DNA from: Moraxellaceae bacterium
Lineage (GTDB): Bacteria > Pseudomonadota > Gammaproteobacteria > Pseudomonadales > Moraxellaceae
Assembly: GCA_037969155.1 (NCBI GenBank)
Contig: JBBKWW010000039.1
Span: 1 to 15,939, forward strand
Length of the DNA: 15,939 bases
Direction of reading: 5' to 3'
A program made the translations under genes and the position numbers. Of the stretch, positions 2,971 through 15,939 are shown piece after piece. How positions within the stretch are numbered: position 1 is the first letter of the stretch; each line of letters begins with the position of its first letter. Below the pieces are notes generated by a model, which was not told the origin of the DNA, did not search any database, and saw only the letters and a program-made list of their open reading frames with translations.

Positions 2971-3246
2971 TTGTGCCAAAATAGTCGAATCCCATGCAGT
3001 CTTTCACGCAAAAGACCGCGAATAACTTGCTAAACCCAGCAAAAATACTTTATAAATTAACCGTTGCAAAAAACAGACAAAGCCAGACAAAAAGCAGCTT
3101 GACTACGCTATAGTGGTGTACAAGATTTTATTCGGCATGCCTGTATGGCTGATGCGGTATCTCGCGATACAATCCACTGATTGAACAGGATGCCTGAACA
3201 ATATCAGCCAACGCATCCATATACCGTCAAAGCTGAGGAGCATAAC

Positions 3247-3885
3247 ATGACTATTTTTCTCGCTAACATCCTCGCCTTTCCAACCATTATTTTTTCGATA
3301 TTACTCAGTGTTGCTGTGCTGTACTGGCTGATTTCGCTCACTGGTCTACTCGGATCAGATCTGGATCTGGATACCGGCGATGGTTGGTTAGATTTTGGGG
3401 GGCTGATGACCACTTTAGGACTCAAAGGCGTCCCCCTGCCGCTGCTCTTAACGCTGGTATTGCTGTGGGCTTGGCTGACCACCTATTCGGTGCAAGTGCT
3501 CTTCGCAACGTGGCTGACGGGCGTAATCGGGATTGTGGTCAGTTGTGTCTTGATTCCTGTTGCACTACTGCTCGGGCTGGTGCTGAGTGCTTTACTGGTG
3601 CGGCCATTTCACTCACTACTCGACGAATCGCAACAGCCGACCCAGACCCGCATTCTCGGCTGTGTCTGTAATGTGACTTCACCGACGGTGGATCAGCACA
3701 ATGGGCGTGCTGAAGCGCATTTAGATGGCGCACATTTGATCTTACAAATCCGCAGCAGTACACCACTGACTCGCGGTAGCCGAGCGGTCTTTATCGAATA
3801 TATTGCCGAAAAAAACCTGTATTGGGTTGTGCCTGAAGCCGAATTTCTGGCAGGATCAATCCAGAAAATCTCAATGAAAGATTAA
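3247..3885 (+). CDS. yqiJ: YqiJ/NfeD-like inner-membrane protein (DUF1449-like): N-terminal transmembrane helices plus a C-terminal OB-fold beta domain. Partner of the downstream flotillin.
   Basis: There are at least three hydrophobic helices (FLANILAFPTIIFSILLSVAVLYWLI, VPLPLLLTLVLLWAWL, IGIVVSCVLIPVALLLGLVLSALLV). These are followed by a soluble ~90-aa C-terminal domain (ILGCVCNVTSP...GAHLILQIRS...AVFIEY) of NfeD type. It sits immediately upstream of an SPFH/flotillin gene, as in E. coli yqiJK. The start was chosen at the ATG with GAGGAG 7 nt upstream; the ORF is open from the TTG at 3181. Confidence 0.55.
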   Translation: MTIFLANILAFPTIIFSILLSVAVLYWLISLTGLLGSDLDLDTGDGWLDFGGLMTTLGLKGVPLPLLLTLVLLWAWLTTYSVQVLFATWLTGVIGIVVSCVLIPVALLLGLVLSALLVRPFHSLLDESQQPTQTRILGCVCNVTSPTVDQHNGRAEAHLDGAHLILQIRSSTPLTRGSRAVFIEYIAEKNLYWVVPEAEFLAGSIQKISMKD

Positions 3886-3953
3886 TAGGGCATTGAGGAT
3901 GCTCACAACTGTGATTATTCCTCACTCATAGTACAGCTTAGGAGAGCGAACAC

Positions 3954-6119
3954 ATGACACATTGGTTCATCTTGGCGATCAGCGCAATTGCGGTGATTTT
4001 GATCGTCTTATTGGGCATGCTACTGCTGATTAAGATTTTTTATCGCAAAATTGACCAAGGCCAAGCCTTGATTAAAAATGACACGTCCAGCACCCCGAAA
4101 GTCTACTTTACTGGTGCGATGATTCTGCCCGTAATTCATCGGGCTGAGATCATGAAAATCTCAGTGATCACCCTCGAAATTAATCGAATGGGCAAAGAAG
4201 GCCTGATCTGCCGCGACAATTTACGCGCTGATATTAGCGTGGCATTTTATCTGCGGGTTAATGAAACCGCTGATGATGTGCTGCGCGTGGCCAAATCAGT
4301 TGGCGTGACGCGTGCCTCTGATCGGGATGCGGTCAGTGAGTTATTTAACTCTAAATTCAGTGAAGCCCTGAAAACGGTCGGTAAAAAACTCGAATTTATG
4401 CAGCTGTTTGAGGAGCGTCAGGCATTTCGGGATGCGATTGTCGCCACCATTGGGCAAGATCTGAATGGCTATGTGCTTGAAGATGTCGCCATCGACTACT
4501 TAGAGCAGACCCCAAAAAGCTCACTCGATCCGAATAACATCCTCGACTCTGAAGGGATTCGGCGGATTACTGAAATTACCGCCAAACACAATATCGAAAC
4601 CAACCGCTTAGAGCGTGATCAGGCACTAGAAATTCAGCGCAAAAACGTCTCTGCACGTGAAGCGGGTCTGGAGCTTGAACGCAGCCAAACCGATGCAGAA
4701 GCACGACAACGCCGCGAAATTGACACCTTAAAAGCGCGTGAAACCTCAGCCACCGAGCAAGTGCAGCAAGAAGAACGCGGCAAAATCGAAGCAGCACGCA
4801 TCAAGACGGAAGAAGACGTCGCGATTGCCGAAGAAAATAAACAACGCCAAATCGAACTGGCTGGCAAAGCCCGCGAGCGAGCGATTCAGATTGAAGACGT
4901 GCGTATCCGCCAAGCCCGCGAACTCGAAGACGTCAATCGTCAACGTGCGGTCGAAGTCGAACGCATTAACATGGAAAAAGAGCTGGAAGGTGAGCGCAAA
5001 GAAATTGCGGAAATCACCAGTCAGCGTATCGCAGTCGAACGCGGGGTCGCTGAAGAAGAAGAGAACATCAAAGATGTGCGTAACCGTTCGGATGCTGAGC
5101 GTAAAAAACTGGTTGCGATTACTGCGGCACAAGCGACGGCTGAAGAACACAAAATCAAACAAGTCAAAGCAGCTGAAGCACAGTTTGAGCAGTCAAAGTT
5201 TGAAGCGGATGAAGTGTTGGTACGTGCTCAGGCTGAATTCGATGCCGCCGAGAAAAAAGCCGCCGCTGAGAAAAAACAAGCCGAAGGCCAACAAGCGCTG
5301 GCTGCTGCAAATGGCCTAGCCGCTGCGCAAGTGCAAGAAGCCAACGCCAACGCCGAAAAAGCCGCGGGCTTGGCACAAGCCGACGTCAAGCTGGCCATGG
5401 CCAAAGCACAAGAAGAAACCGGTATGGCCGATGTGCGGGTACTCAACAATCGCCTGCAAGTCGAGGCTGACGGGCAAGAAAAACTTGGCTCTGCTAAGGC
5501 TAAAGCACGCGAAGCGATGGCCTTGGCGGATAAAGAAGCGGGGCTGGCAGAAGCACAAGTGTTGCAACAACGCCTACTCGCAGAAGCTGACGGAGAAGAA
5601 AAACTTGGCGTTGCTAAAGCTAAAGCTCGCGAAGCGATGGCGGCTGCGGATAAAGAAGCGGGACTGGCAGAAGCCTTAGTGATGGAAAAACGGCTGTTTG
5701 CTGAAGCAGATGGTGAGGAACGCTTGGGACTGGCGAAAGCCAAAACCCGCGAAGCCCTGCTAGTCGCTGATGCCAATGGCCTACTGGCCAAACTGAAAAC
5801 CTACGAAGATCTATCAGCAGATGCACGTTCGTTTGAAGAATTCCGGATGGGCTTAGAGTTGCAAGAGAAACAAATCTTGGGACAACTAGAAGCACAACAG
5901 GTGATTGCACAAGAAAATGCCAAAGTGATGGCGGCGGCATTGCAAAATGCTAAGTTTGAATTGATCGGTGGCGATGCCAGCATCTTCGAAAAATTCACTA
6001 CTGGCATGAGTTATGGCAAAGCAGTAGAAGGGGCGCTGTCTAAGTCGCCACAACTACAAGCCACTTTAGCCGCGATTGCTAGTCGGGTGGCACAGTCTTC
6101 AACCGACTCAGCAAGCTAA
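3954..6119 (+). CDS. yqiK: Flotillin-like SPFH/band-7 protein (YqiK/FloT-like) with a long Glu/Ala-rich coiled-coil C-terminal region.
   Basis: 721 aa. It has an N-terminal TM helix (WFILAISAIAVILIVLLGMLLLI). The SPFH core follows (KVYFTGAMILPVIHRAEIMKISVITLEINRMGKEGLICRDNLRADISVAFYLRV...). After that comes about 450 aa of heptad-like E/A/K/R-rich sequence. AGGAGA Shine-Dalgarno before the ATG. Confidence 0.85.
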   Translation: MTHWFILAISAIAVILIVLLGMLLLIKIFYRKIDQGQALIKNDTSSTPKVYFTGAMILPVIHRAEIMKISVITLEINRMGKEGLICRDNLRADISVAFYLRVNETADDVLRVAKSVGVTRASDRDAVSELFNSKFSEALKTVGKKLEFMQLFEERQAFRDAIVATIGQDLNGYVLEDVAIDYLEQTPKSSLDPNNILDSEGIRRITEITAKHNIETNRLERDQALEIQRKNVSAREAGLELERSQTDAEARQRREIDTLKARETSATEQVQQEERGKIEAARIKTEEDVAIAEENKQRQIELAGKARERAIQIEDVRIRQARELEDVNRQRAVEVERINMEKELEGERKEIAEITSQRIAVERGVAEEEENIKDVRNRSDAERKKLVAITAAQATAEEHKIKQVKAAEAQFEQSKFEADEVLVRAQAEFDAAEKKAAAEKKQAEGQQALAAANGLAAAQVQEANANAEKAAGLAQADVKLAMAKAQEETGMADVRVLNNRLQVEADGQEKLGSAKAKAREAMALADKEAGLAEAQVLQQRLLAEADGEEKLGVAKAKAREAMAAADKEAGLAEALVMEKRLFAEADGEERLGLAKAKTREALLVADANGLLAKLKTYEDLSADARSFEEFRMGLELQEKQILGQLEAQQVIAQENAKVMAAALQNAKFELIGGDASIFEKFTTGMSYGKAVEGALSKSPQLQATLAAIASRVAQSSTDSAS
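5439..5798 (+). repeat. Three in-frame tandem copies of a 120-nt (40-aa) unit inside the flotillin coiled-coil. A degenerate fourth copy lies upstream.
   Basis: The three units align residue for residue: VLNNRLQVEADGQEKLGSAKAKAREAMALADKEAGLAEAQ, VLQQRLLAEADGEEKLGVAKAKAREAMAAADKEAGLAEAL and VMEKRLFAEADGEERLGLAKAKTREALLVADANGLLAKL. The underlying DNA units are at 5439-5558, 5559-5678 and 5679-5798. The repeat also generates spurious ORFs in other frames (4738..5319, 5431..5679, 5228..5791 minus). Confidence 0.8.
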
Positions 6120-6151
6120 TCTGGCCTCGTGTAGCATGCTGAATCAGCACA

Positions 6152-6179
6152 CATCAAGGGCAGATTTCTGCCCTTGATG
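6152..6179 (+). terminator. Strong hairpin (12-bp perfect stem CATCAAGGGCAG / loop ATTT / CTGCCCTTGATG) between the flotillin gene and the giant ORF, with no U-tract. Attenuator, processing site or weak terminator.
   Basis: Inverted repeat seen directly. It is followed by CCGATTGCAGC, which is not T-rich. Confidence 0.4.
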
Positions 6180-6231
6180 CCGATTGCAGCACAAAACGCC
6201 AGAGACACCGCCACACTGATGGAACGCTCAT

Positions 6232-9200
6232 ATGTCAACAGATCATAACCAACTTGAACAGATCGTCCGTGAAGGCTCTGCCTTTGACACCATTCAACGC
6301 CGTTTGCAGACACAAGGCGAGCAATTACGCCACTCGATTAACGACCTAAACACCGAACGCACCGAGACTTTTGGCAGTGCCAACATGGCGATTTTGGGTC
6401 GCTCACGGGTGCGCACCGAACAAAATGGCGTCGCACGTGACGTGGTGCAGCTGGGCACACACCTGTTATTTGGCTTTAATCTCCAGCTGGGGCTGCGTAA
6501 AAATCTCAATGCCGATGATATTTTTGTGTTGTATCAACTCGACGACGCCAACGGTGAGTTTGAACTGACCGCACACAGCAATGCAGGCACGTTTTTGCAT
6601 GACCCAGTATTTTTGCGCGATTTTAATGAACTCCAACAATATTATAGCAATGCATTCTTAAGCCAACTGGTCTGCATGAGTGGCATGCTGCTTGCCGTAT
6701 TTCAGATCGGCGAAAAAGTCACGGATGTGCGGGTGTTTCGCTGGGAACTGTATCCGAATGGCAGCGTCAATCGCTATATCGATAATCGTGGCGAACGCGA
6801 GCTAAAATTTCCAGATCGGTTTGGCTTTAAATGGATCACGGCCACCCGCGAAATGCAGGTACAAGGCCGTCAGCCACACTTGAACATTTTAGATACGATT
6901 TTTGTCGATAATTTGCGCGGTGATATCACGTTTAAAATCGAAAACAACACGGCAACGGGTCAAGGTATTTTTGCTGATCCAGTCGATATCGACTCGCAGT
7001 CACTCGATGATGGCAGCTTTGAATATGCGGATTTGGGCGCATTAATTTTAGTGCGTATTTTACCCTTTACCGAAAAAACATGGCGTTACTACATTTTTAA
7101 CCGTGATTTACAAACTGTACGGCGAGTCGATGAGCTGGCCGGTTCAGTGGTTGCGCTACCCGAAAATCATGGGGTGATTTTTCCAGCAGGCTTTTATCTC
7201 AATAGCGGTGAGCTAAAGACATATGAGATTGCTGCCGAGGATTTTCGGTTTTTACGCAGCATTCGCGCACCGAATGGCGAAGATGTGCTGTTTATCTTTT
7301 TTGCACAAAAAACAGGGCATGTTCTGCTCTATCGTTATAATTTAATTAATAAAAGCACTGACACTCCACTGATCGGACATGGCTATGCGCTGCACAGCAG
7401 TGGCCGACTGGTGATCTTTCATGCCGAAGGTGAGCCGACGTTGGTGCATCCGCTACAACTGTGGCAAACGCCATTTATGACGGATACGGTACATGCTGAA
7501 CAGCAACAATCCAATGACAGCGTACTGGGCAAAATCGGCAATCCTGAACTGGTTCGCGGTATTGCAGAGCTGAACAGCATCACCAAACTGATTGAACAGC
7601 CGACTGCTTCTGAGCGGCATTTCAATAGTTTGATTCGACAAATTGACCGCACATTGGATCAGTATTTTTGGCTGAGCGAAGTGCATTTTGAAGCATTTAA
7701 TCAACAGCTGGTGGCCGCGCGTGGCACAGCGGAACTGATGATTGATGAGTACGAAAAGGTGCAAGCGATTCGGCAACAGTCCAATCAGGCGATTGAGCAA
7801 ACCGCACAACAACAAGCACAACTGCTGCGCGACCTAAAGCCCAAACAATGGAACGCGCCAGATCAGTTTGTGGGTTACCTGAAAAAACTACGCGATCATC
7901 ACGGCCAACTGATGAGCCTAAAGGATCGGCGTTATATTGATACGACTCGCCTTGAGCAACTGCAACAGGCGCTCAAAACCGCGCAAGATCAGCTGACCGT
8001 GCAGACGTTTGATTTTTTGGCATCTGAAGCGGCACTCCAAGGCTATCGCAATACGCTATCCGAACTGGCCAGCCAAGTCACTACCGCGCAAACCCGTGAT
8101 GCACTGAGCACACTGGTGGCGCAATATCGTGAACTGACGCTTGGGCTCGATATGATCCAAAGCATGTTGGCCTCGATGAGTGGCGATAACACCACACAAC
8201 AGACTCAGATCGCCGAAAACATCTCCAGTATCTATGCCACGATCAATCAGCAACGCGCCGAAGCCGAAATCCGGCTGCGCGAACAAGGCAGTGCCGAGGC
8301 ACGGGCGCAGTTTACCGCAAGGATTCGACTGTATGAACAAAGCCTTGCCAATGGCATCGGCACGCTCAGCGCCCCCGATGATTGCGATGGCTTACTGGCT
8401 CGTATGCTGGATCAACTGCAAGAACTCGAAAGCCAATTTAGCGAGTTTGATGATTTTTTACTGTTGATCTTAGAGCAACGCGACAGCACGCAAGACAGTA
8501 TCGAAGCACGACGCTTACAGCTACAAGAACAACGACAACGCCGTATCAACACCTTAAGCGACGCGAATAGCCGCATTCTGATCAATATCAAACAACGCAG
8601 CGAACGCTTTGCCGAACTGGCCGAATTGCATGCGTTTTTTGCCGGTGATGCGATGGTGGCCAAAGTGCGCCAAATGGCACAGCAACTGCGCGACATCGGC
8701 GCAAGTCTGGAGGCCGATACCGCCGAAGGCCAATTGCGTGCTGCGCAAGATGCGGCGATGCGCAGCGTGCGTGATCGTGCCGATATTTTTGAGGATGGCG
8801 GCAATCTGATTCGGCTAGGTCGGCATCGCTTTAGTGTCAATCAGCAACAACTGGATCTGACCTTAATTCCGCGCGATGGCAAGCTGATGCTGCACCTGAC
8901 GGGCACGCAGTTTTATGAACCGCTGGAGGATCCACGACTCGCCGTATTGCAGCAGTATTGGAACATTCAAACACCATCTGAATCCGAACAGGTCTATCGT
9001 GCCGAGTATTTGGCCTATCTGATCCTGCAACAACTGAGTAGTCGCCCACAATTGCCGTTTAATCTGGCGGATCAAGCCGCGCTGACCGACTATATTCGGC
9101 AGTTTGCCTCACCACGCTATCGAGAAGGCTACGAAAAAGGCATTCATGATGTCGATGCTGCCAAAATCGTCAGTGCGCTGTGGACCGCACAACAACAGGC

Positions 9201-11670
9201 AGGGCTGCTCCGTTTCTCGCCGACCGCACGCGCGATGGCAATGCTGTTTTGGCAAGCACTGACCCAACAACCGAACTGCCAAACTGCCCGTAGCTTACAG
9301 GCGCGTGCCCAGTCGGCGGGTAGCTTGCAGCGGATTCTCGGCAGTGAGCAACTGTTACAGCGCTTGACCGAAGAAATTCAGCCTGCCCTATCCAGCTTTA
9401 TCGATGCCCAGCAACTGCGTGCCAATACCGCCCAAACCCAACAAGCCGCAGCGTACTTGATTCGACAACTCGCCGACCCAGTGGCCAGCCAAGATGTCCG
9501 CTTCGTCAGCACGCAATATGCGCAACAACAACGACAAGCCTTCCAACAGGCTGCACAGCAACAGGGCTATCAGGCCGAGCTACAACAGGCCATTCAGCAA
9601 GCCGGTCAAAATTATGGCAAAGCATGGGCAGTGGCTGACACATGGCTGACGGCGTTTTTGCAAAAACATGAAAGTAACAATCCGGCGCAACAGCAGCACT
9701 ATCTGCCCGAAACTATTGCACTGCTGCTCACCCCCGAACTGCCGCATCAGGCACAGTCAGTCGAACTGTCGTTTGTGATTGAAGGTTTAATCGGTCAGCA
9801 TCCGCGTTTAAATGGCCAACAACTGTCGATTCAATTGGATGATTTTTTTGAGCGTTTACAACAGCATGAACAGGTGGTGATCACGGGTTGGCAGCAACTG
9901 CAACAGCTGCGACACGAGATTTTGCAGCAGCAACGCGAGCGGCTGCGCTTGAGTGAATACACCGCCAAACCGCTATCATCATTTGTGCGCAATAAGCTAA
10001 TTAGCGAAAGTTATTTGCCATTGATCGGTGACAATCTGGCCAAACAAATGGGCACTGTCGGCGAAAATCGACGCACCGATCAGACGGGCCTACTGATGAT
10101 GATCTCGCCGCCTGGTTATGGTAAAACCACCCTGATGGAGTATGTTGCTGATCGTTTAGGCTTGATTTTTATGAAAATCAACTGCCCCAGCCTTGGCCAT
10201 GATGTGACCTCACTCGATCCTGAGCAAGCCCACCATTCCACCGCAAAATCCGAACTGACCAAACTGAATCTGGCCTTAGAAATGGGCAACAACGTGATGC
10301 TGTATCTGGATGACATTCAGCATACGCATCCTGAGTTTTTACAAAAATTCATCTCCTTATGTGATGGTACACGGCGGATTGAAGGGGTTTGGCGTGGCAA
10401 AAGCAAAACCTACGACATGCGCGGCAAGCGCTTTTGTATTGCGATGGCAGGTAATCCGTACACCGAAAGCGGTGAAGTGTTTAAGATTCCTGACATGCTC
10501 GCCAACCGCGCCGATATTTATAACTTAGGCGATGTACTCAGCGGCATGGAACAGGTGTTTGCACTGTCGTATATCGAAAACGCGATCAGTTCGAATGCCA
10601 TGATTGCACCGATAGCGACCCGTGGCATGGATGATTTTTATCGTTTTGTTGATCTCGCCAATGGCCGCGACGTGCCGAGTACCGAGTTTGATTACGACTA
10701 TAGCGCAGCGGAACGGCAAGACATCACCAAGGTCATGCAAAACCTGTTTAAAGTACGCCAGACTGTGCTTCGGGTGAATCAAGAATACATCGCATCGAGT
10801 GCGCAAGCCGATCAGTATCGCACTGAGCCGAGTTTTCGCTTGCAAGGCAGCTATCGCAACATGAACCGCTTGGCCGAAAAAATCTCACCGATCATGACCG
10901 ACGCTGAAATCGAACGGCTACTCGACGATCACTATGTGGGTGAAGCACAATTGCTGACGCAAGGTGCAGAAGAAAACCTGCTCAAGCTTAAATCCATGCG
11001 CGGCACCTTGAACGCCGAGGAGCAAACCCGCTGGACACAGATCACCAGCGAGTTTCAACGCCGCCAGCAGATGGGCGGCGACCAAGACACCGGCGAAAAA
11101 GTGGTACGCCAGTTGGTATTTATCAGCGAGGGCTTACAACAACTGCACAGCATCAGCAATCAGCACAGCGAACGACAACTGACTCAGCAAGATGCGCAGT
11201 TTGGTCGCATCGCTGACGGTCTATCTGGCTTGCAAAACAGCCAGCGCGAACTGACCGAACAACGCCACAATCAACAGCGCGACTTGGCCAGCCAACAGCT
11301 ACGCTTAGAACAGACACGCCAACAACAACAGAACGATACGCTGAGTGGCTTGGCGGCGCAATTGATCCAGCAACTGCAACAGCTTGATCTAAAACCGCAA
11401 GTGCATATACAGATTGAAGAACCACGCAGTGTCAGTGAGCTGCTGAAACAAATGTCGAGCCTACTCGCGCAAGTGCTAGGTAGTTTAAATCCAAAGGATG
11501 ATCAGGCGGCACAGACCAAGGCCATCAGCGATGCCCTGCAAACGGGTCAAAGCCAGACCGTGCAACTGCTCCGCCAGCTGCGCATGCTGATGGTGCGCCT
11601 AGAAGGACAAGTCCGCCAAAGCAACCTGCAACAGGCGCAATTACAGCCGCCGTCTGACTCGCAAACTTAA
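6232..11670 (+). CDS. Giant multidomain protein (1812 aa). It has an N-terminal globular domain (about 1-480) and a long Gln/Leu-rich predicted coiled-coil region (about 480-1250). A MoxR/dynein-related (AAA_5-like) AAA+ ATPase core sits at about aa 1280-1480. The C-terminal tail is Gln-rich. Function unknown.
   Basis: It is a single 5.4-kb ORF with no competing long ORFs on either strand. Walker A is ISPPGYGKTTL (nt 10108-10140). Walker B is VMLYLDDIQH (nt about 10294-10323). The following RRIEG...GKRFCIAMAGNPYTESGEVFKIPDMLANRADIY segment matches the MoxR/AAA_5 pattern (DEInR...ATQNP.E..G.Y.LPEA.LDRF). The central and C-terminal regions have extended Q-rich heptad-like sequence (QQQRQAFQQAAQQQGYQAELQQAIQQ, LRLEQTRQQQQN). 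Confidence 0.8.
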   Translation: MSTDHNQLEQIVREGSAFDTIQRRLQTQGEQLRHSINDLNTERTETFGSANMAILGRSRVRTEQNGVARDVVQLGTHLLFGFNLQLGLRKNLNADDIFVLYQLDDANGEFELTAHSNAGTFLHDPVFLRDFNELQQYYSNAFLSQLVCMSGMLLAVFQIGEKVTDVRVFRWELYPNGSVNRYIDNRGERELKFPDRFGFKWITATREMQVQGRQPHLNILDTIFVDNLRGDITFKIENNTATGQGIFADPVDIDSQSLDDGSFEYADLGALILVRILPFTEKTWRYYIFNRDLQTVRRVDELAGSVVALPENHGVIFPAGFYLNSGELKTYEIAAEDFRFLRSIRAPNGEDVLFIFFAQKTGHVLLYRYNLINKSTDTPLIGHGYALHSSGRLVIFHAEGEPTLVHPLQLWQTPFMTDTVHAEQQQSNDSVLGKIGNPELVRGIAELNSITKLIEQPTASERHFNSLIRQIDRTLDQYFWLSEVHFEAFNQQLVAARGTAELMIDEYEKVQAIRQQSNQAIEQTAQQQAQLLRDLKPKQWNAPDQFVGYLKKLRDHHGQLMSLKDRRYIDTTRLEQLQQALKTAQDQLTVQTFDFLASEAALQGYRNTLSELASQVTTAQTRDALSTLVAQYRELTLGLDMIQSMLASMSGDNTTQQTQIAENISSIYATINQQRAEAEIRLREQGSAEARAQFTARIRLYEQSLANGIGTLSAPDDCDGLLARMLDQLQELESQFSEFDDFLLLILEQRDSTQDSIEARRLQLQEQRQRRINTLSDANSRILINIKQRSERFAELAELHAFFAGDAMVAKVRQMAQQLRDIGASLEADTAEGQLRAAQDAAMRSVRDRADIFEDGGNLIRLGRHRFSVNQQQLDLTLIPRDGKLMLHLTGTQFYEPLEDPRLAVLQQYWNIQTPSESEQVYRAEYLAYLILQQLSSRPQLPFNLADQAALTDYIRQFASPRYREGYEKGIHDVDAAKIVSALWTAQQQAGLLRFSPTARAMAMLFWQALTQQPNCQTARSLQARAQSAGSLQRILGSEQLLQRLTEEIQPALSSFIDAQQLRANTAQTQQAAAYLIRQLADPVASQDVRFVSTQYAQQQRQAFQQAAQQQGYQAELQQAIQQAGQNYGKAWAVADTWLTAFLQKHESNNPAQQQHYLPETIALLLTPELPHQAQSVELSFVIEGLIGQHPRLNGQQLSIQLDDFFERLQQHEQVVITGWQQLQQLRHEILQQQRERLRLSEYTAKPLSSFVRNKLISESYLPLIGDNLAKQMGTVGENRRTDQTGLLMMISPPGYGKTTLMEYVADRLGLIFMKINCPSLGHDVTSLDPEQAHHSTAKSELTKLNLALEMGNNVMLYLDDIQHTHPEFLQKFISLCDGTRRIEGVWRGKSKTYDMRGKRFCIAMAGNPYTESGEVFKIPDMLANRADIYNLGDVLSGMEQVFALSYIENAISSNAMIAPIATRGMDDFYRFVDLANGRDVPSTEFDYDYSAAERQDITKVMQNLFKVRQTVLRVNQEYIASSAQADQYRTEPSFRLQGSYRNMNRLAEKISPIMTDAEIERLLDDHYVGEAQLLTQGAEENLLKLKSMRGTLNAEEQTRWTQITSEFQRRQQMGGDQDTGEKVVRQLVFISEGLQQLHSISNQHSERQLTQQDAQFGRIADGLSGLQNSQRELTEQRHNQQRDLASQQLRLEQTRQQQQNDTLSGLAAQLIQQLQQLDLKPQVHIQIEEPRSVSELLKQMSSLLAQVLGSLNPKDDQAAQTKAISDALQTGQSQTVQLLRQLRMLMVRLEGQVRQSNLQQAQLQPPSDSQT

Positions 11671-11683
11671 ACTGGATATCGGC

Positions 11684-12406
11684 ATGAGCGCAGCAAAACA
11701 GATTTTATGGGTGGAGGATGACCCCGCGATTGCTGAACCGATGTGCTATGCCTTGCAACGCGAAGGCTGGCAGGTGCACTGGCAAACCACCGCACAAGGT
11801 GCATTAGAGCTGCTCAGTACACAGGTCTTTGACTGTCTGATTTTGGACGTCGGTTTGCCCGATATGGATGGTTTTGATCTGTGTCGGCGGATTCGCCAAA
11901 CCTGCCAAACGCCGCTGCTGTTTTTAACCGCACGCAATGACGAAATCGAACGCATCATCGGCCTCGAAATCGGCGCGGATGATTACTGCGCCAAGCCGTT
12001 TAGCCCGCGTGAAATCATCTCGCGGATTAAGGCGATTTGGCGACGGATGCAGCCCAGCAGCAGCGAGCCAATCCATAGCACGCCGCCTACAATACCAGCA
12101 GCCACTGACCTGCACACATGGGGCGCGTGGCGTTATCAGCCGCACAGTTATCAGTTGTTTTATCACCAGCAACTACTGAATTTAACCCGCTATGAACTGG
12201 GCTTAATCTTGCTGTTCCTACAACAGCCTGAGCGGGTGTTTAGCCGTGAACAACTGATGCAACAGGTCTGGCAACATCCCGACCACAGCCTTGAGCGCAC
12301 CGTCGATAGCCACATCAAAACCCTGCGCCAAAAACTACACGCCATCCATCCAAGCGATCCGATTGTGACCCATCGTGGTTTGGGCTATAGCTTACTGCGC
12401 GACTAA
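11684..12406 (+). CDS. creB: OmpR/PhoB-family response regulator, CreB-like.
   Basis: The receiver domain has VEDD, the phospho-acceptor region LILDVGLPDMDGFDLCR and LFLTARNDEIERIIGLEIGADDYCAKPFSPREI. The C-terminal winged helix has LTRYE...VFSREQLMQQVW...RTVDSHIKTLRQKLHAIHP...THRGLGYSL. These blocks closely parallel E. coli CreB as I recall it. The start is 13 nt after the giant ORF's stop. Confidence 0.65.
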   Translation: MSAAKQILWVEDDPAIAEPMCYALQREGWQVHWQTTAQGALELLSTQVFDCLILDVGLPDMDGFDLCRRIRQTCQTPLLFLTARNDEIERIIGLEIGADDYCAKPFSPREIISRIKAIWRRMQPSSSEPIHSTPPTIPAATDLHTWGAWRYQPHSYQLFYHQQLLNLTRYELGLILLFLQQPERVFSREQLMQQVWQHPDHSLERTVDSHIKTLRQKLHAIHPSDPIVTHRGLGYSLLRD

Positions 12407-12459: not shown

Positions 12460-13926
12460 ATGTCAATTTTTGTGCGAATTTGGGCAGCGTTTACGCTGGT
12501 CTTGCTGATCGGTAGTCTCCTGACCACGCATGCGCTACAACAACAAATCAAACCCAACATGCGCCAAGTGGTCGAGGATACGTTAGCGGACAATGCCAAT
12601 CTAATCGCTGGATTGGTTGCCGATGATCTACGCGATGGGCGTTTGCAAAACGTGGCGTTTGACCAAAAAATCCAAGCTGCACTCAGCCGTGATCTGAATG
12701 CCAAAATCCGCAGCATGTCAAAAACAAATGTCCAGCAAACCCTATATATCACTGATGCACAAGGCAGGGTGCGCTACGACTCGAGTGGCCACGCAACTGG
12801 CCAAGACTACTCACGCTGGAATGACGTGTATCTAACCCTACGCGGCCAATACGGCGCACGCTCAACGCGCAGCGATCCAAATGACGAGAACAGCTCGGTG
12901 ATGTATATTGCTGCACCGATCATTGATCAGGGTCAAATCATCGGCGTGGTCAGTGTCGGCAAAGCAGGGCGCACCGTACAGCCGTATATCGAAAATGCCC
13001 AGCGCGAGATGCTGCAACAAGCTGCGCTGATGGTATTAATTTCACTGTTGCTGTGTGGCGTAGTCGCATGGTGGCTACGCCGCAGTATCAACACTGTACG
13101 CCGCTACGCGCTGTCACTGCCTGCGCATGAATTGCCCGCACCGCATTTTTATTCGGCCAGTGAACTGAATGACCTGACCCGTGCCCTGACCCAAATGCGC
13201 AGCCAACTCGAAGACCGCGCCTACATCGAACAAGTGGTACACCATCTGACCCACGAACTCAAAAGCCCACTGACCGCGATCAGTGCCAGTGCTGAATTGC
13301 TACAAGACCCGCTGCCCTTGGTGGATCAGCAGCACTTCGCCGCCAATATCCAACAGCAAACCGAACATCTGCAACAACTGGTTGAGCGGCTACTGATACT
13401 GGTACGCCTAGAGCAACAAGCTGATCAATTCGTATTACAGCCCCACAATTTAAGCCAGCTTGTTGCAAGCTGTATCCAAGCGCGGCAGAGTGTTTTGCGC
13501 AGTCGGCAAGTTCAAATCATCAATACACTGCCCGATCCACTCTGGGTACTGGCTGAGCCATTTTGGTTGGGACAAGCGATTGGTAATCTGCTCGATAACG
13601 CCATCGACTTTACTGCGGCACAAGGCATGATTCGGCTCACTAGTCACCGCACGGGTTTACAACAACAACTGAGTATTGAAAACAACGGTGAACCGATTCC
13701 TGACTATGCGTTGTCACAAGTATTTGATCGGTATTTCTCTTTGCCCAGACCCATGACAGGCCGCAAAAGCAGCGGTATCGGCTTGACTTTAGTCAAAGAA
13801 ATCATGCTACGTCATCAAGGTGCAGTGACGCTGGACAACACACCGAATGGCGTCTGTGCCAGTCTGTGGTTGGCACAAGCAGACCCAAACACCGACCGTC
13901 AAACAACCACTGCGAAATCGTCATAA
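12460..13926 (+). CDS. creC: Sensor histidine kinase with two TM helices flanking a periplasmic domain of about 170 aa. CreC-like.
   Basis: H-box HHLTHELKSPLTAISASAELL, N-box LLDNAIDFT and G-box GIGLTLVKEIM. TM1 is IWAAFTLVLLIGSLLTT and TM2 is AALMVLISLLLCGVVAWWL. It is the partner of the CreB-like regulator, and a creD-like gene lies downstream. Confidence 0.6.
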   Translation: MSIFVRIWAAFTLVLLIGSLLTTHALQQQIKPNMRQVVEDTLADNANLIAGLVADDLRDGRLQNVAFDQKIQAALSRDLNAKIRSMSKTNVQQTLYITDAQGRVRYDSSGHATGQDYSRWNDVYLTLRGQYGARSTRSDPNDENSSVMYIAAPIIDQGQIIGVVSVGKAGRTVQPYIENAQREMLQQAALMVLISLLLCGVVAWWLRRSINTVRRYALSLPAHELPAPHFYSASELNDLTRALTQMRSQLEDRAYIEQVVHHLTHELKSPLTAISASAELLQDPLPLVDQQHFAANIQQQTEHLQQLVERLLILVRLEQQADQFVLQPHNLSQLVASCIQARQSVLRSRQVQIINTLPDPLWVLAEPFWLGQAIGNLLDNAIDFTAAQGMIRLTSHRTGLQQQLSIENNGEPIPDYALSQVFDRYFSLPRPMTGRKSSGIGLTLVKEIMLRHQGAVTLDNTPNGVCASLWLAQADPNTDRQTTTAKSS

Positions 13927-14028
13927 ATCTGTCATGATTTGAGGATAGTGTGATCATATGAACAATAAAAAAAGCAGCGACAATCCAACAATAATTCATC
14001 TCATCATCAGTCAGGAGAACTGTAAATT

Positions 14029-14793
14029 ATGAATATGACTCGTTATCTCAATCATTTTAAAAAACCCATGCTGCCGTCTATTTTTATCGGCATATGGCCA
14101 CTATTCGGACTGTATCTCTGGCTACAAATGGAGAGTCTATTTGCCCTGATCATCGGCAGCTTTTTTGCTGTACTGCACTATCGCAAATGGCGGCGTTACC
14201 AACGTGCGCAATATATTGAACAGTACGCCATGCCGTTGTATCTCTTGCATGATCTGCGCCGAGAGTATCAGCTTGACTCGGTACAACTGCCCATCATCGA
14301 GCGCGGCTTTAAAGACTTTTGCTTAATTCATCTGGAGAAACCCAACCAACTGCACAACATGCCGTCTAAAGCAGTCGATGCACTGTGGCACGCTTTTATC
14401 CTCGACACACGCAGCTATGCGGAGTTTTGTCAGCGTGCCTTTGGCCACATGCTGCATCATCGCCCGTCACTCGACATGCAAGCGTTGTCCAATACCACAC
14501 AGCAAAAATCCTTAAAGGCCACATGGCTTGGCGCGTGCCAACTGGAAAATTTCACCCACACACACGCCGCTCAGTTGCCGTTACAGTTACCCTTGTTATT
14601 TGCCATTGACCAGTACTTGGCGTGGCCGCAAGGCTTGCACTATCAGCTAGATCAACTGCAACACTTACTCAGAGTTCGTGATGCGAGTTCGAGTTGTGGT
14701 GGTGGAAGCTGTGGTGGGACATCCGTTGATATCAGTGATAACAGCAGTTCAGGTGGTGATTCGGGCTGTGGCGGTGGTTGTGGTGGGGATTAA
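14029..14793 (+). CDS. N-terminally membrane-anchored protein. Its conserved-looking core carries a WHxFxLDTxxY motif and several His residues, possibly related to DUF1399 (glycine-rich domain-containing protein-like). It ends in a Cys/Gly-rich C-terminal tail.
   Basis: 254 aa. TM segment: IFIGIWPLFGLYLWLQMESLFALIIGSFFAVL. Core: VDALWHAFILDTRSYAEFCQRAFGHMLHHRP. Tail: SSSCGGGSCGGTSVDISDNSSSGGDSGCGGGCGGD. AGGAGA Shine-Dalgarno 10 nt upstream. Confidence 0.55.
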   Translation: MNMTRYLNHFKKPMLPSIFIGIWPLFGLYLWLQMESLFALIIGSFFAVLHYRKWRRYQRAQYIEQYAMPLYLLHDLRREYQLDSVQLPIIERGFKDFCLIHLEKPNQLHNMPSKAVDALWHAFILDTRSYAEFCQRAFGHMLHHRPSLDMQALSNTTQQKSLKATWLGACQLENFTHTHAAQLPLQLPLLFAIDQYLAWPQGLHYQLDQLQHLLRVRDASSSCGGGSCGGTSVDISDNSSSGGDSGCGGGCGGD

Positions 14794-14886: not shown

Positions 14887-15198
14887 ATGTTCACATTTAG
14901 CCACCGACTCAGCGTTTTGTTTGCACTCACTAGCATCATGTTCAGCAGCACCAGCCACGCCGCAGTTACCGAGACCTTTAAACTCACAGCCCCCGTCGAG
15001 TTTTCGGAAGAAGGCACTTATCTGACCACCAATAAGGGCGACTTTGTACTGCAAACCCTCATCATCAATCCACGTGTATTTAACACGATTAAAACCCTAA
15101 AACGTGGCAACTGCTTTAGCGCCACCTCCCCGCAAGGGCTCAGCAGCGCCGAAGGCAGTGACATCAGTAAAGTCAGTAAAATTGCCTGTAAGCGCTAA
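14887..15198 (+). CDS. Small secreted protein of unknown function (103 aa precursor, Sec signal peptide, two Cys).
   Basis: Signal peptide MFTFSHRLSVLFALTSIMFSSTSHA with the predicted cleavage after SHA and AV following. AGGAAA Shine-Dalgarno 7 nt upstream. The mature protein is about 80 aa with Cys near the C-terminus. Confidence 0.5.
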   Translation: MFTFSHRLSVLFALTSIMFSSTSHAAVTETFKLTAPVEFSEEGTYLTTNKGDFVLQTLIINPRVFNTIKTLKRGNCFSATSPQGLSSAEGSDISKVSKIACKR

Positions 15199-15228: not shown

Positions 15229-15687
15229 ATGTCAAAATTTATTTTTTCACTGACTGCCGTCACAGCACTTAGCCTGAGCGTCAATGCACAGGCGGCTTGT
15301 CCCAGCGCAGCCAAAACGGTATTTAGCTGTAGCACCACCAATGGCAAAGTGGTCGAAATCTGTGACCTCGGCCAGCATCTCATGTATTCATTTGGCAAAC
15401 CCCGCGCCAAGCCCGAACTCCAGTTTAATCTGGCCAAAACCCGTGCCTATATGTACTTATGGGATGGCAATACTAGCTCTGAATACAATGAGTTGTATTT
15501 ACCGCGTGGCAACACCATCTATCAAGCCTACCACGCCAATCACCGCAATCATGGCGGCACTGAACATGGGATCAAAGTTTTTATCAATCAAAAACAAGTG
15601 GCTGATGTACGCTGCCGTGCGGCCAGTGTGATCGAAAACTTTCAACAGCTTGAGCTACCGCAGATCAGTGGTGACGAACGACTTTAA
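15229..15687 (+). CDS. Secreted protein of unknown function (152 aa precursor, Sec signal peptide, five Cys in the mature part).
   Basis: Signal peptide MSKFIFSLTAVTALSLSVNAQA with cleavage after AQA and A following. GGAG 8 nt upstream. The mature part, ACPSAAKTVFSCSTTNGKVVEICDLG..., suggests disulfide bonding. Confidence 0.55.
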   Translation: MSKFIFSLTAVTALSLSVNAQAACPSAAKTVFSCSTTNGKVVEICDLGQHLMYSFGKPRAKPELQFNLAKTRAYMYLWDGNTSSEYNELYLPRGNTIYQAYHANHRNHGGTEHGIKVFINQKQVADVRCRAASVIENFQQLELPQISGDERL

Positions 15688-15703: not shown

Positions 15704-15719
15704 TTCACACAGACTTCAC
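15704..15719 (+). promoter_or_regulatory. Cre-tag direct repeat TTCACacagacTTCAC, the consensus CreB-binding motif, 72 nt upstream of the creD-like start.
   Basis: An exact TTCAC-N6-TTCAC was seen in the sequence. In E. coli, CreBC-regulated promoters including creD carry this tag. Confidence 0.5.
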
Positions 15720-15790: not shown

Positions 15791-15939
15791 ATGCAGCGTT
15801 TTCTAAGCTTTAAATTTTTGATCATGGCTGGATTGATTTTTGGCTTTTTAGTGTGTTTTATGTTTATGCGCGGCATCGTGTATGAACGACAGCAATACAG
15901 CCAAAACGTGATTGCCGAAATTGGCCGTGACAGCGTGCG
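15791..15939 (+). CDS. creD: N-terminal fragment of a CreD-like inner membrane protein. It continues beyond the window.
   Basis: Open frame MQRFLSFKFLIMAGLIFGFLVCFMFMRGIVYERQQYSQNVIAEIGRDSV. The TM helix followed by an ...ERxxYxxxV... segment resembles the start of CreD. It sits downstream of creBC and a cre-tag. Confidence 0.45.
   Translation, partial: MQRFLSFKFLIMAGLIFGFLVCFMFMRGIVYERQQYSQNVIAEIGRDSV

Follow-up and report, generated by a model that had tools for sequence, protein, structure and literature searches.

A membrane-anchored PF27765 protein with a Cys/Gly-rich tail, encoded between creC and creD in an uncultured Moraxellaceae-like clade

INTRODUCTION

Plant GRDP/DUF1399 proteins, which are mechanistically uncharacterized, influence how well plants tolerate stress, how large their seeds grow, and how they resist disease. 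Orthologues of plant GRDP2 have a C-terminal glycine-rich domain with interspersed cysteines, for which the MEME consensus [CG]GGGCGG[GC] has been reported (PMC4299439), and cotton GRDP1 is a cytoplasmic protein associated with the endoplasmic reticulum (PMC13001069). A separate group, the TIGR04222 proteins, is found mostly in Actinomycetota, often beside MNIO genes (PMC12452194). In the canonical creBCD locus of Escherichia coli, Acinetobacter, and Alkanindiges, the sensor kinase gene creC is followed directly by creD. Here we describe gene X, located at positions 14029 to 14793 of the forward strand of contig JBBKWW010000039.1 (assembly GCA_037969155.1, a Moraxellaceae bacterium); the whole analyzed stretch of this contig, 15,939 nucleotides, is called the window below. 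A preliminary description, made from the DNA letters and their translations, had read gene X as a membrane-anchored protein with a DUF1399-like core and a Cys/Gly-rich tail, wedged into a creBCD locus.

RESULTS

Gene X and the PF27765 family

Gene X encodes a real, membrane-anchored protein of a catalogued but uncharacterized bacterial family. Its open reading frame (ORF) begins with ATG and runs for 254 codons and a stop, and the ORF list and translation confirm the position given in the preliminary description to the nucleotide. The core quoted there (DALWHAFILDTRSYAEFCQRAFGHMLHHRP) and the quoted tail (SCGGGSCGG...GCGGGCGGD) are both present in the translation. The gene and its parts are the following.

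14029-14793 (stop included), forward strand: gene X, 254-residue protein, assigned to family PF27765 (UCP032817-like); from the ORF list and translation.
14068-14178, forward strand: N-terminal membrane anchor, residues ~14 to 50, read as a two-helix hairpin; from hydropathy, AlphaFold2 (AF2) helices, and charges.
14206-14691, forward strand: all-helical domain, residues ~60 to 221, predicted to lie on the cytoplasmic side; from the 118-sequence alignment A1 and the AF2 model.
14350-14469, forward strand: core motif in common with DUF1399/GRDP-like proteins, residues 108 to 147, LHNMPSKAVDALWHAFILDTRSYAEFCQRAFGHMLHHRPS; from hhalign and reciprocal hidden Markov models (HMMs).
14686-14790, forward strand: disordered Ser/Gly/Asp/Cys tail, residues 220 to 254, ending GCGGGCGGD-COOH; from composition, predicted local distance difference test (pLDDT) values, and conservation.

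The protein contains 13 His among its 254 residues and 7 Cys overall. Its N terminus, MNMTR.LNHFKKP, is kept in close relatives. Hydropathy exceeds 1.5 across residues 14 to 50 in 19-residue windows, and the AF2 model places helices at residues 17 to 33 and 37 to 65; both lines of evidence back the proposed membrane anchor. The model as a whole is all-helical (mean pLDDT 85; predicted template modeling score 0.81), with pLDDT mostly 90 to 98 in the domain and ~47 to 54 in the tail, and residues from ~222 onward are modeled as disordered.

X almost certainly belongs to PF27765. A database protein identical to it over the full length (P0001, 100% identity) carries the precomputed annotation PF27765.1 "UCP032817-like," and all 120 listed proteins among the 528 homologues found at E <= 1e-3 in a large protein collection carry PF27765.1 as well. 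Among 1.84 billion cluster representatives, a profile made from 118 aligned family members (alignment A1) matched 10,552 at E <= 1e-3; tightening the limit to E <= 1e-10 left 2,925, and E <= 1e-30 left 684. At least 585 species-representative genomes contain a relative, and the best 80 matches listed come nearly all from Alpha-, Beta-, and Gammaproteobacteria. NCBI gives some relatives the name "glycine-rich domain-containing protein," and JGI calls two "YgcG." In a Xanthomonadaceae metagenome-assembled genome (MAG), two tandem family paralogues stand side by side (L007, 5091-5894 and 6001-6702), both with Cys/Gly tails.

Other sources added little to this assignment. Nothing was found in the literature under UCP032817, PF27765, or PIRSF032817, and the name "glycine-rich domain-containing protein," sought for bacteria, led to plant papers only. 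The local Pfam and NCBIfam libraries gave no significant match for X or its relatives, PADLOC gave no match for X or its neighbors, and a sequence-profile search of the PDB returned only a Gly-Ser linker artifact, with no detectable fold relative or solved family structure. Longer family members showed no informative domain fusion. An Acyl_transf_3 match on the transmembrane (TM) region of X was below threshold (20 bits, cut-off 31) and was dismissed as a hydrophobic-segment match. YxzE matches in 6 of the 118 members were likewise below threshold, the one viewed lying on the low-complexity tail, and weak UstYa matches, also in 6 of 118 (best E = 0.0019), all stayed below threshold.

A near-invariant set of residues in the helical domain

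Within A1 (n = 118), P112, S113, D117, W120, H121, Y130, C134, H144, P146, and D194 are invariant, and H143, W166, and C170 are nearly invariant. Read in order, these positions form the 13-residue signature P-S-D-W-H-Y-C-H-H-P-W-C-D (PSDWHYCHHPWCD), which is complete in 235 of 266 diverse members and in X. Conserved residues are paired one helical turn (i/i+4) apart on three helices (D117/H121, Y130/C134, and W166/C170), and these pairs, together with H143-H144 and D194, look like a putative binding or catalytic pocket.

One metagenomic family member, P0244 (429 residues), is tandemly duplicated; each copy reads WR in place of the invariant WH, and there is no Cys/Gly tail, a single anecdote of pocket His and tail lost together.

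Remote homology to DUF1399

The resemblance to DUF1399 survives in a form other than Pfam membership. The proposed HMMER search with PF07173 (DUF1399) gave no match to X even at E <= 10, nor to any of the 118 relatives, and PF07173 does not figure among the results listed for 10 named relatives either, at a gathering threshold of 22.7 bits and with genuine members (five confirmed) scoring 165 to 228 bits in the same library. X is, very probably, a remote homologue of the DUF1399 domain and not a Pfam DUF1399 member, as profile-profile and reciprocal HMM comparisons suggest.

PF07173 proteins were retrieved with a bait sequence, and an alignment of 22 of them (A2) displays two repeats of W-H-x-H-x-L-x-P-x-x-Y. 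In hhalign, X-family residues 108 to 147 matched DUF1399 repeat 2 with P = 0.0024 and repeat 1 with P = 0.0071, in the same register, and the alignment also takes in the upstream R-x-[FY]-[KR]-x-F helix. The hhalign score of 28.6 is above all 150 column-shuffled nulls (mean 14.3, standard deviation 2.7, maximum 26.2), and the reversed profile scored 11. The reciprocal searches agree on where the likeness lies, their matches falling on the core block, residues 108 to 147. An HMM of the family core matched 119 of 120 PF07173 proteins, at best with ~14 to 17 bits per repeat against <=6.7 bits for controls, and reached 29.9 bits with P0219, a protein annotated with both PF27765 and PF07173. In the other direction, an HMM made from PF07173 proteins alone gave every family ORF (120/120) 3 to 18 bits, and 765 unrelated control ORFs from the same loci scored <=1.1 bits.

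The statement that DUF1399 proteins also end in Gly-rich tails fits the plant GRDP1/2 subgroup, in which the tails share the [CG]GGGCGG[GC] consensus (PMC4299439). In the plant protein P0127, CGGCGGGCGGSCGGGC... comes directly after the DUF1399 region, at the C-terminal end. Domain and Cys/Gly tail co-occur across kingdoms, from bacteria to plants.

The Cys/Gly tail is conserved family-wide

The last 35 residues of X contain 4 Cys (C223, C228, C247, and C251), 13 Gly, 10 Ser, and 4 Asp; the preliminary description had the glycines right and had counted 6 Cys. A Gly/Cys-rich C terminus is present in all 118 aligned relatives, with GCGGGCGGD as the commonest ending, and 95 of them have C-x(1-4)-C-x(1-4) at the terminus. 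G248, G250, C251, G252, and G253 are each >=90% conserved in A1. In the wider set a Gly/Cys terminus was found in 237 of 266 proteins by a strict criterion, and of the other 29, which have no Gly-rich end, the majority retain one that is rich in Cys/Ser and closed by Asp, or seem truncated or frameshifted.

Close relatives tell the same story at the DNA level. Compared with its 86%-identical relative in L003, the last 9 tail codons differ only synonymously, and the middle of the tail carries in-frame indels of 3 and 12 nt. Variants of X that are >=90% identical have 253, 254, or 255 residues, with one-codon changes and Cys/Gly swaps in the tail; swaps affect C223 and C247, and C228 and C251 are constant. 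The tail looks to be under purifying selection. Its loss or frameshifting in close relatives, named earlier as the mark of an assembly artifact, was not seen, the Gly/Cys end being kept in 118 of 118.

The 13 tail Gly codons are 8 GGT, 2 GGG, 2 GGC, and 1 GGA; the 8-mer TGTGGTGG is present three times in the tail DNA, and Tandem Repeats Finder reported no array there. The tail had been said to be encoded by GGT/GGC-rich repeats, a wording that holds loosely. For slippage, suggested on the same grounds, the repeat search showed no tandem repeat; near-identical variants do, however, vary by one codon, so the length variation that was to be looked for among strains exists on a small scale (253 to 255 residues).

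Predicted membrane topology

In 80 single-TM family members, Lys plus Arg residues average 0.09 before the TM segment and 4.75 in the 15 residues after it. X has 3 such residues before its hydrophobic hairpin and 5 after. By the positive-inside rule, domain and tail are predicted to be cytoplasmic, and both ends of the X hairpin would lie inside. The "disulfide-forming tether" offered for the tail is unlikely because this predicted topology would put the tail in the reducing cytoplasm.

Placement of gene X in the cre locus

The genes that define the locus are given here.

11684-12406, forward strand: creB, response regulator; NF008296 (CreB) 288 bits, cut-off 273.
12460-13926, forward strand: creC, sensor histidine kinase; NF008312 (CreC) 595 bits, cut-off 356.
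15791-15939, forward strand: creD, first 49 codons, the window ending inside the gene; N terminus identical to CreD of locus L001 (483 residues, PF06123).

CreB and CreC exceed their NCBIfam cut-offs and creD starts at 15791, which bears out the creBCD context. The order in the window is creB, creC, X, two small ORFs, the cre tag, and creD. X is not CreD: it has no PF06123 match, and the actual creD starts at 15791. Among two-TM relatives of X (50 to 100% identity), the gene follows creB-creC in five of five loci examined; creD lies downstream also in L003, L089, and L091, and not in L090. The nearest named relatives of CreC are from Alkanindiges illinoisensis (59%) and from Moraxellaceae MAGs and Acinetobacter species (50 to 56%), and a plain creB-creC-creD order is found in Alkanindiges and Acinetobacter junii (L093 and L094).

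Distant family members have no cre genes nearby. Histidine kinases close to other members are of the PAS, NifL, or GGDEF type and are not CreC. Recurrent neighbors in 85 family loci apparently reflect synteny among close relatives, and the tightly coupled neighbors are mutually unrelated (a ParA-like ATPase, SDR dehydrogenases, DUF2889, MmeI, NifA, and MprF/VirJ). Across PF27765 the gene stands alone, and its cre placement is a clade-specific insertion in an uncultured, Moraxellaceae-like clade. The earlier description of the gene as wedged into creBCD is correct, for the window's clade only.

Regulatory elements around X and creD

Three elements on the forward strand bear on the expression of X and creD.

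13920-13935, forward strand: direct repeat GTCATAAATCTGTCAT (GTCAT-N6-GTCAT), overlapping the creC stop codon, upstream of X; alignment A4.
14008-14022, forward strand: conserved CAGTCAGGAGAACTG block with Shine-Dalgarno AGGAG, this AGGAG ending 11 nt before the ATG; nearly invariant in five loci.
15704-15719, forward strand: exact cre tag TTCACACAGACTTCAC, its first base 87 nt before the creD start codon; no second match in the window.

By chance, ~0.03 exact matches to the cre tag TTCAC-N6-TTCAC would be expected in the window, and the one found is downstream of X. TTCACACAGACTTCAC occurs unchanged in the window, L089, and L091, in a matching position that is always between X (or the small ORFs) and creD, and one-mismatch tags precede creD in L092 to L094 (a MAG, Alkanindiges, and Acinetobacter). 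Because the tag is always downstream of X, transcription of X does not start at the creD promoter.

Upstream of X, GTCAT-N6-GTCA[TC] is kept in all five X loci, and the rest of the spacer has diverged (A4). The relaxed pattern KTCAY-N6-KTCAY has just two sites in the window, the GTCATAAATCTGTCAT repeat and the cre tag, both on the forward strand. OmpR/PhoB-type response regulators typically bind boxes arranged in this way; the repeat may be a candidate box of this kind driving X, and the arrangement suggests either a CreB-like-dependent promoter of its own or read-through from creBC. The CAGTCAGGAGAACTG block has no significant RNA structure (z = 0.71).

Other genes around the cre locus and other family loci

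Two small ORFs between X and creD (14887-15198 and 15229-15687, forward strand) encode proteins of 103 and 152 residues with signal-peptide-like N termini and no Pfam, NCBIfam, or PADLOC match. The 152-residue product is 78% identical to that of the same-position ORF in L091, and both small ORFs are absent from L003 and L089. In a MAG locus, L092, an unrelated 146-residue ORF (5459-5899) occupies the creC-creD spacer. Insertions seem to collect in this spacer among Moraxellaceae-like genomes.

Directly upstream of creB, positions 3181 to 11670 (forward strand) encode a 234-residue membrane protein, a 721-residue coiled-coil protein, and a 1,812-residue ATPase (DUF3686, DUF7902, and an AAA ATPase), none of them with a PADLOC match. 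The gene for the 1,812-residue protein adjoins creB in L001, L003, and L091 too. Beyond the window, in four loci, creD shares its last few bases with an ORF of ~136 to 140 residues that has no Pfam match and is probably translationally coupled to creD.

ORF overlapping the creD end (outside the window): L001, 11607-12017; L003, 10365-10781; L089, 8292-8714; L091, 8915-9325.

A family member is carried by 118 Ralstonia megaplasmid records. In the single record inspected, L088 (Ralstonia solanacearum FJAT-91 megaplasmid, CP016613.1, 819736-820434) it stands on the same strand directly after mprF and virJ/acvB; this mprF encodes a lysyl-phosphatidylglycerol synthase/flippase, and the family member is annotated as a hypothetical protein.

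DISCUSSION

A possible membrane-tethered metal-binding or thiol-redox module

Our tentative reading is that X could be a membrane-tethered thiol/His metal-binding or thiol-redox module whose tail cooperates with the pocket. We regard it as the likeliest one because the residue set is near-invariant, the C-x3-C-G-G-D tail appears selected, domain and tail are inherited together, and both are predicted to lie at the cytoplasmic membrane surface. In this scheme, the domain's His/Asp/Cys pocket would work jointly with the flexible C-x3-C tail, whose cysteines would be free thiols kept close to the inner membrane surface; the tail would move back and forth between pocket and surroundings, handing over or sensing a soft metal ion or an oxidizing equivalent. 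In the window's clade, the stretch from creC to the CreB box of creD has taken in X, which is probably expressed with creBC or from its own box, GTCAT-N6-GTCAT, and might serve as an accessory input or output of CreBC envelope signaling. Metal binding by Cys/Gly/His-rich C termini is known from SlyD and HypB, and in thioredoxin reductase and Erv2 a flexible Cys tail at the C terminus serves as a redox shuttle. Soft-metal binding by the X tail is plausible.

Several points weigh against this reading. Activation of UDP-rhamnose synthase through protein-protein contact, which involves no metal or redox chemistry, is the one biochemical function reported for a GRDP (PMC13001069), and no experiment or characterized PF27765 homologue ties the family to metals or redox. 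The link to DUF1399 has an HH-suite probability of just 10-12%. Cys134 and Cys170 lack conserved counterparts in DUF1399 repeat 2, and therefore a Cys-based site would not be ancestral. The predicted cytoplasmic placement of domain and tail has the positive-inside rule as its sole basis. Clustering of the 85 loci gave no neighbor family in more than 10 of them and no metal, redox, or other common theme. Scans for sigma-70 promoters and terminators from creC to creD found nothing, so the transcription units of X are ones that we infer.

Alternative explanations

A non-catalytic role is possible, if on the doubtful side: X may be an adaptor or regulator whose helical domain binds and modulates a partner at the inner membrane face (CreC, CreD, or an envelope-biosynthesis enzyme), with the tail as a flexible interaction or oligomerization element. 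The kinase of a two-component system is often modulated by a small membrane protein whose gene lies next to it, as with MgrB and SafA, and in the window's clade X is stably placed directly after creBC; the Ralstonia member after mprF-virJ/acvB neighbors membrane-lipid genes. In cotton, GRDP1 acts as a binding partner and activator of UDP-L-rhamnose synthase, a role with which its C-terminal glycine-rich domain correlates (PMC13001069). An adaptor, however, is not expected to keep 13 polar or aromatic residues near-invariant in 235 of 266 members or cysteines at fixed spacing at the extreme C terminus, and no partner gene is conserved family-wide.

A bolder version of the module reading would make the helical His/Asp/Cys domain and the CGGGCGG thiol tail one ancient unit, from Proteobacteria to plants, with the pocket acting on or with its own tail. 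X would then represent an unrecognized class of membrane-tethered metallochaperone, thiol relay, or self-modifying protein, wired into CreBC signaling through its own response-regulator box in the window's clade. Taken as a whole, we consider this chain of proposals unlikely.

The tail might also work without metal, as a redox-active swinging arm in which C-x3-C relays a disulfide between the Cys134/Cys170 pair and a substrate, making X a thiol oxidoreductase or oxidative-stress sensor. C-terminal redox arms are known from thioredoxin reductase (GCUG), mercuric reductase (CC), and Erv2 (CGC), and X has two near-invariant domain cysteines, a conserved terminal C-x3-C, and a tail that AF2 models as flexible. 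Yet many members have a single near-terminal Cys (for example, ...GGGGGCGGD), a near-identical strain variant lacks C247, the domain cysteines are absent from DUF1399 repeat 2, and the searches turned up no flavin, NAD, or thioredoxin-like motif or fold, which makes a metal-free arm quite improbable.

Modification of the tail is an idea by analogy that we hold to be very doubtful. The tail would be a substrate resembling the precursor of a ribosomally synthesized and posttranslationally modified peptide, its cysteines converted to thiazol(in)e, thiooxazole, or thioether by an unlinked enzyme or by the N-terminal domain of X. Its composition resembles the Gly/Ser/Cys-rich core of microcin B17, and domain and tail co-occur from bacteria to plants. 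The window ORFs scanned, however, include no MNIO, cyclodehydratase, or radical S-adenosylmethionine gene, the 85 loci have no conserved neighbor, and the UstYa matches in 6 of 118 members are all below threshold. TIGR04222 proteins, which share the anchor and the unstructured Ser/Gly/Cys C terminus, are proposed MNIO substrates (PMC12452194), but X has no TIGR04222 match (NCBIfam, E <= 0.1), and their tails are predicted to be periplasmic and that of X cytoplasmic.

That the tail is meaningless low complexity or an assembly or frameshift artifact on an ordinary hypothetical membrane protein is hardly credible, for all its low complexity, variable middle, and lack of a conserved genomic partner, because independent assemblies give the same protein, the terminal motif recurs in plant GRDPs as well as throughout the 118 aligned relatives, the final nine codons show synonymous differences only, and every indel keeps the frame.

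Implications

PF27765 comprises thousands of sequence clusters, is present in at least 585 species genomes, and is uncharacterized. Nothing about X itself is categorically new; its cre placement is unusual and confined to one clade. For annotation, the gain is that X, neither CreD nor an artifact, is recognized as a gene inserted into creBCD in one clade. With a simple bacterial homologue, placed here in a two-component locus that is already well studied, the function of the domain-plus-tail arrangement would become more tractable, and Ralstonia provides a culturable host of a family member that is suited to genetics.

Comparison with known systems

Within PF27765, X is a typical member in having the full 13-residue signature, an N-terminal anchor, and a Gly/Cys C terminus. 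Its subfamily (P0001 to P0016) differs from most of the family, which is single-TM, by the two-helix hairpin anchor, and it is the only group found within a cre locus.

TIGR04222 proteins have a similar layout, a membrane anchor followed by an unstructured, Ser/Gly-rich C terminus with interspersed Cys (PMC12452194). Unlike their genes, which often neighbor MNIO genes, X has no DUF692/MNIO match among the main window ORFs scanned.

With GRDP/DUF1399 proteins, X has in common the pattern P-[ST]-x3-D-x2-W-H-x3-L-x4-Y-...-G-x2-L-x-H and a Gly-rich C-terminal tail with interspersed Cys, which in X ends in GCGGGCGGD. X has one copy of the motif, whereas the aligned PF07173 proteins have two, and it reads W-H-A-F-I-L-D-T-R-S-Y (WHxFxLDT), with the second His and the Pro of the DUF1399 form WHxHxLxP replaced. 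X is also membrane-anchored, whereas the PF07173 proteins examined are without an N-terminal hydrophobic anchor, and the bacterial domain adds C134, C170, and D194, invariant or nearly so, to what DUF1399 has.

Finally, the window matches the canonical creBCD locus in the equivalog scores of CreB and CreC and in a cre tag just upstream of creD, and it departs from that locus in having X and two small ORFs between creC and creD.

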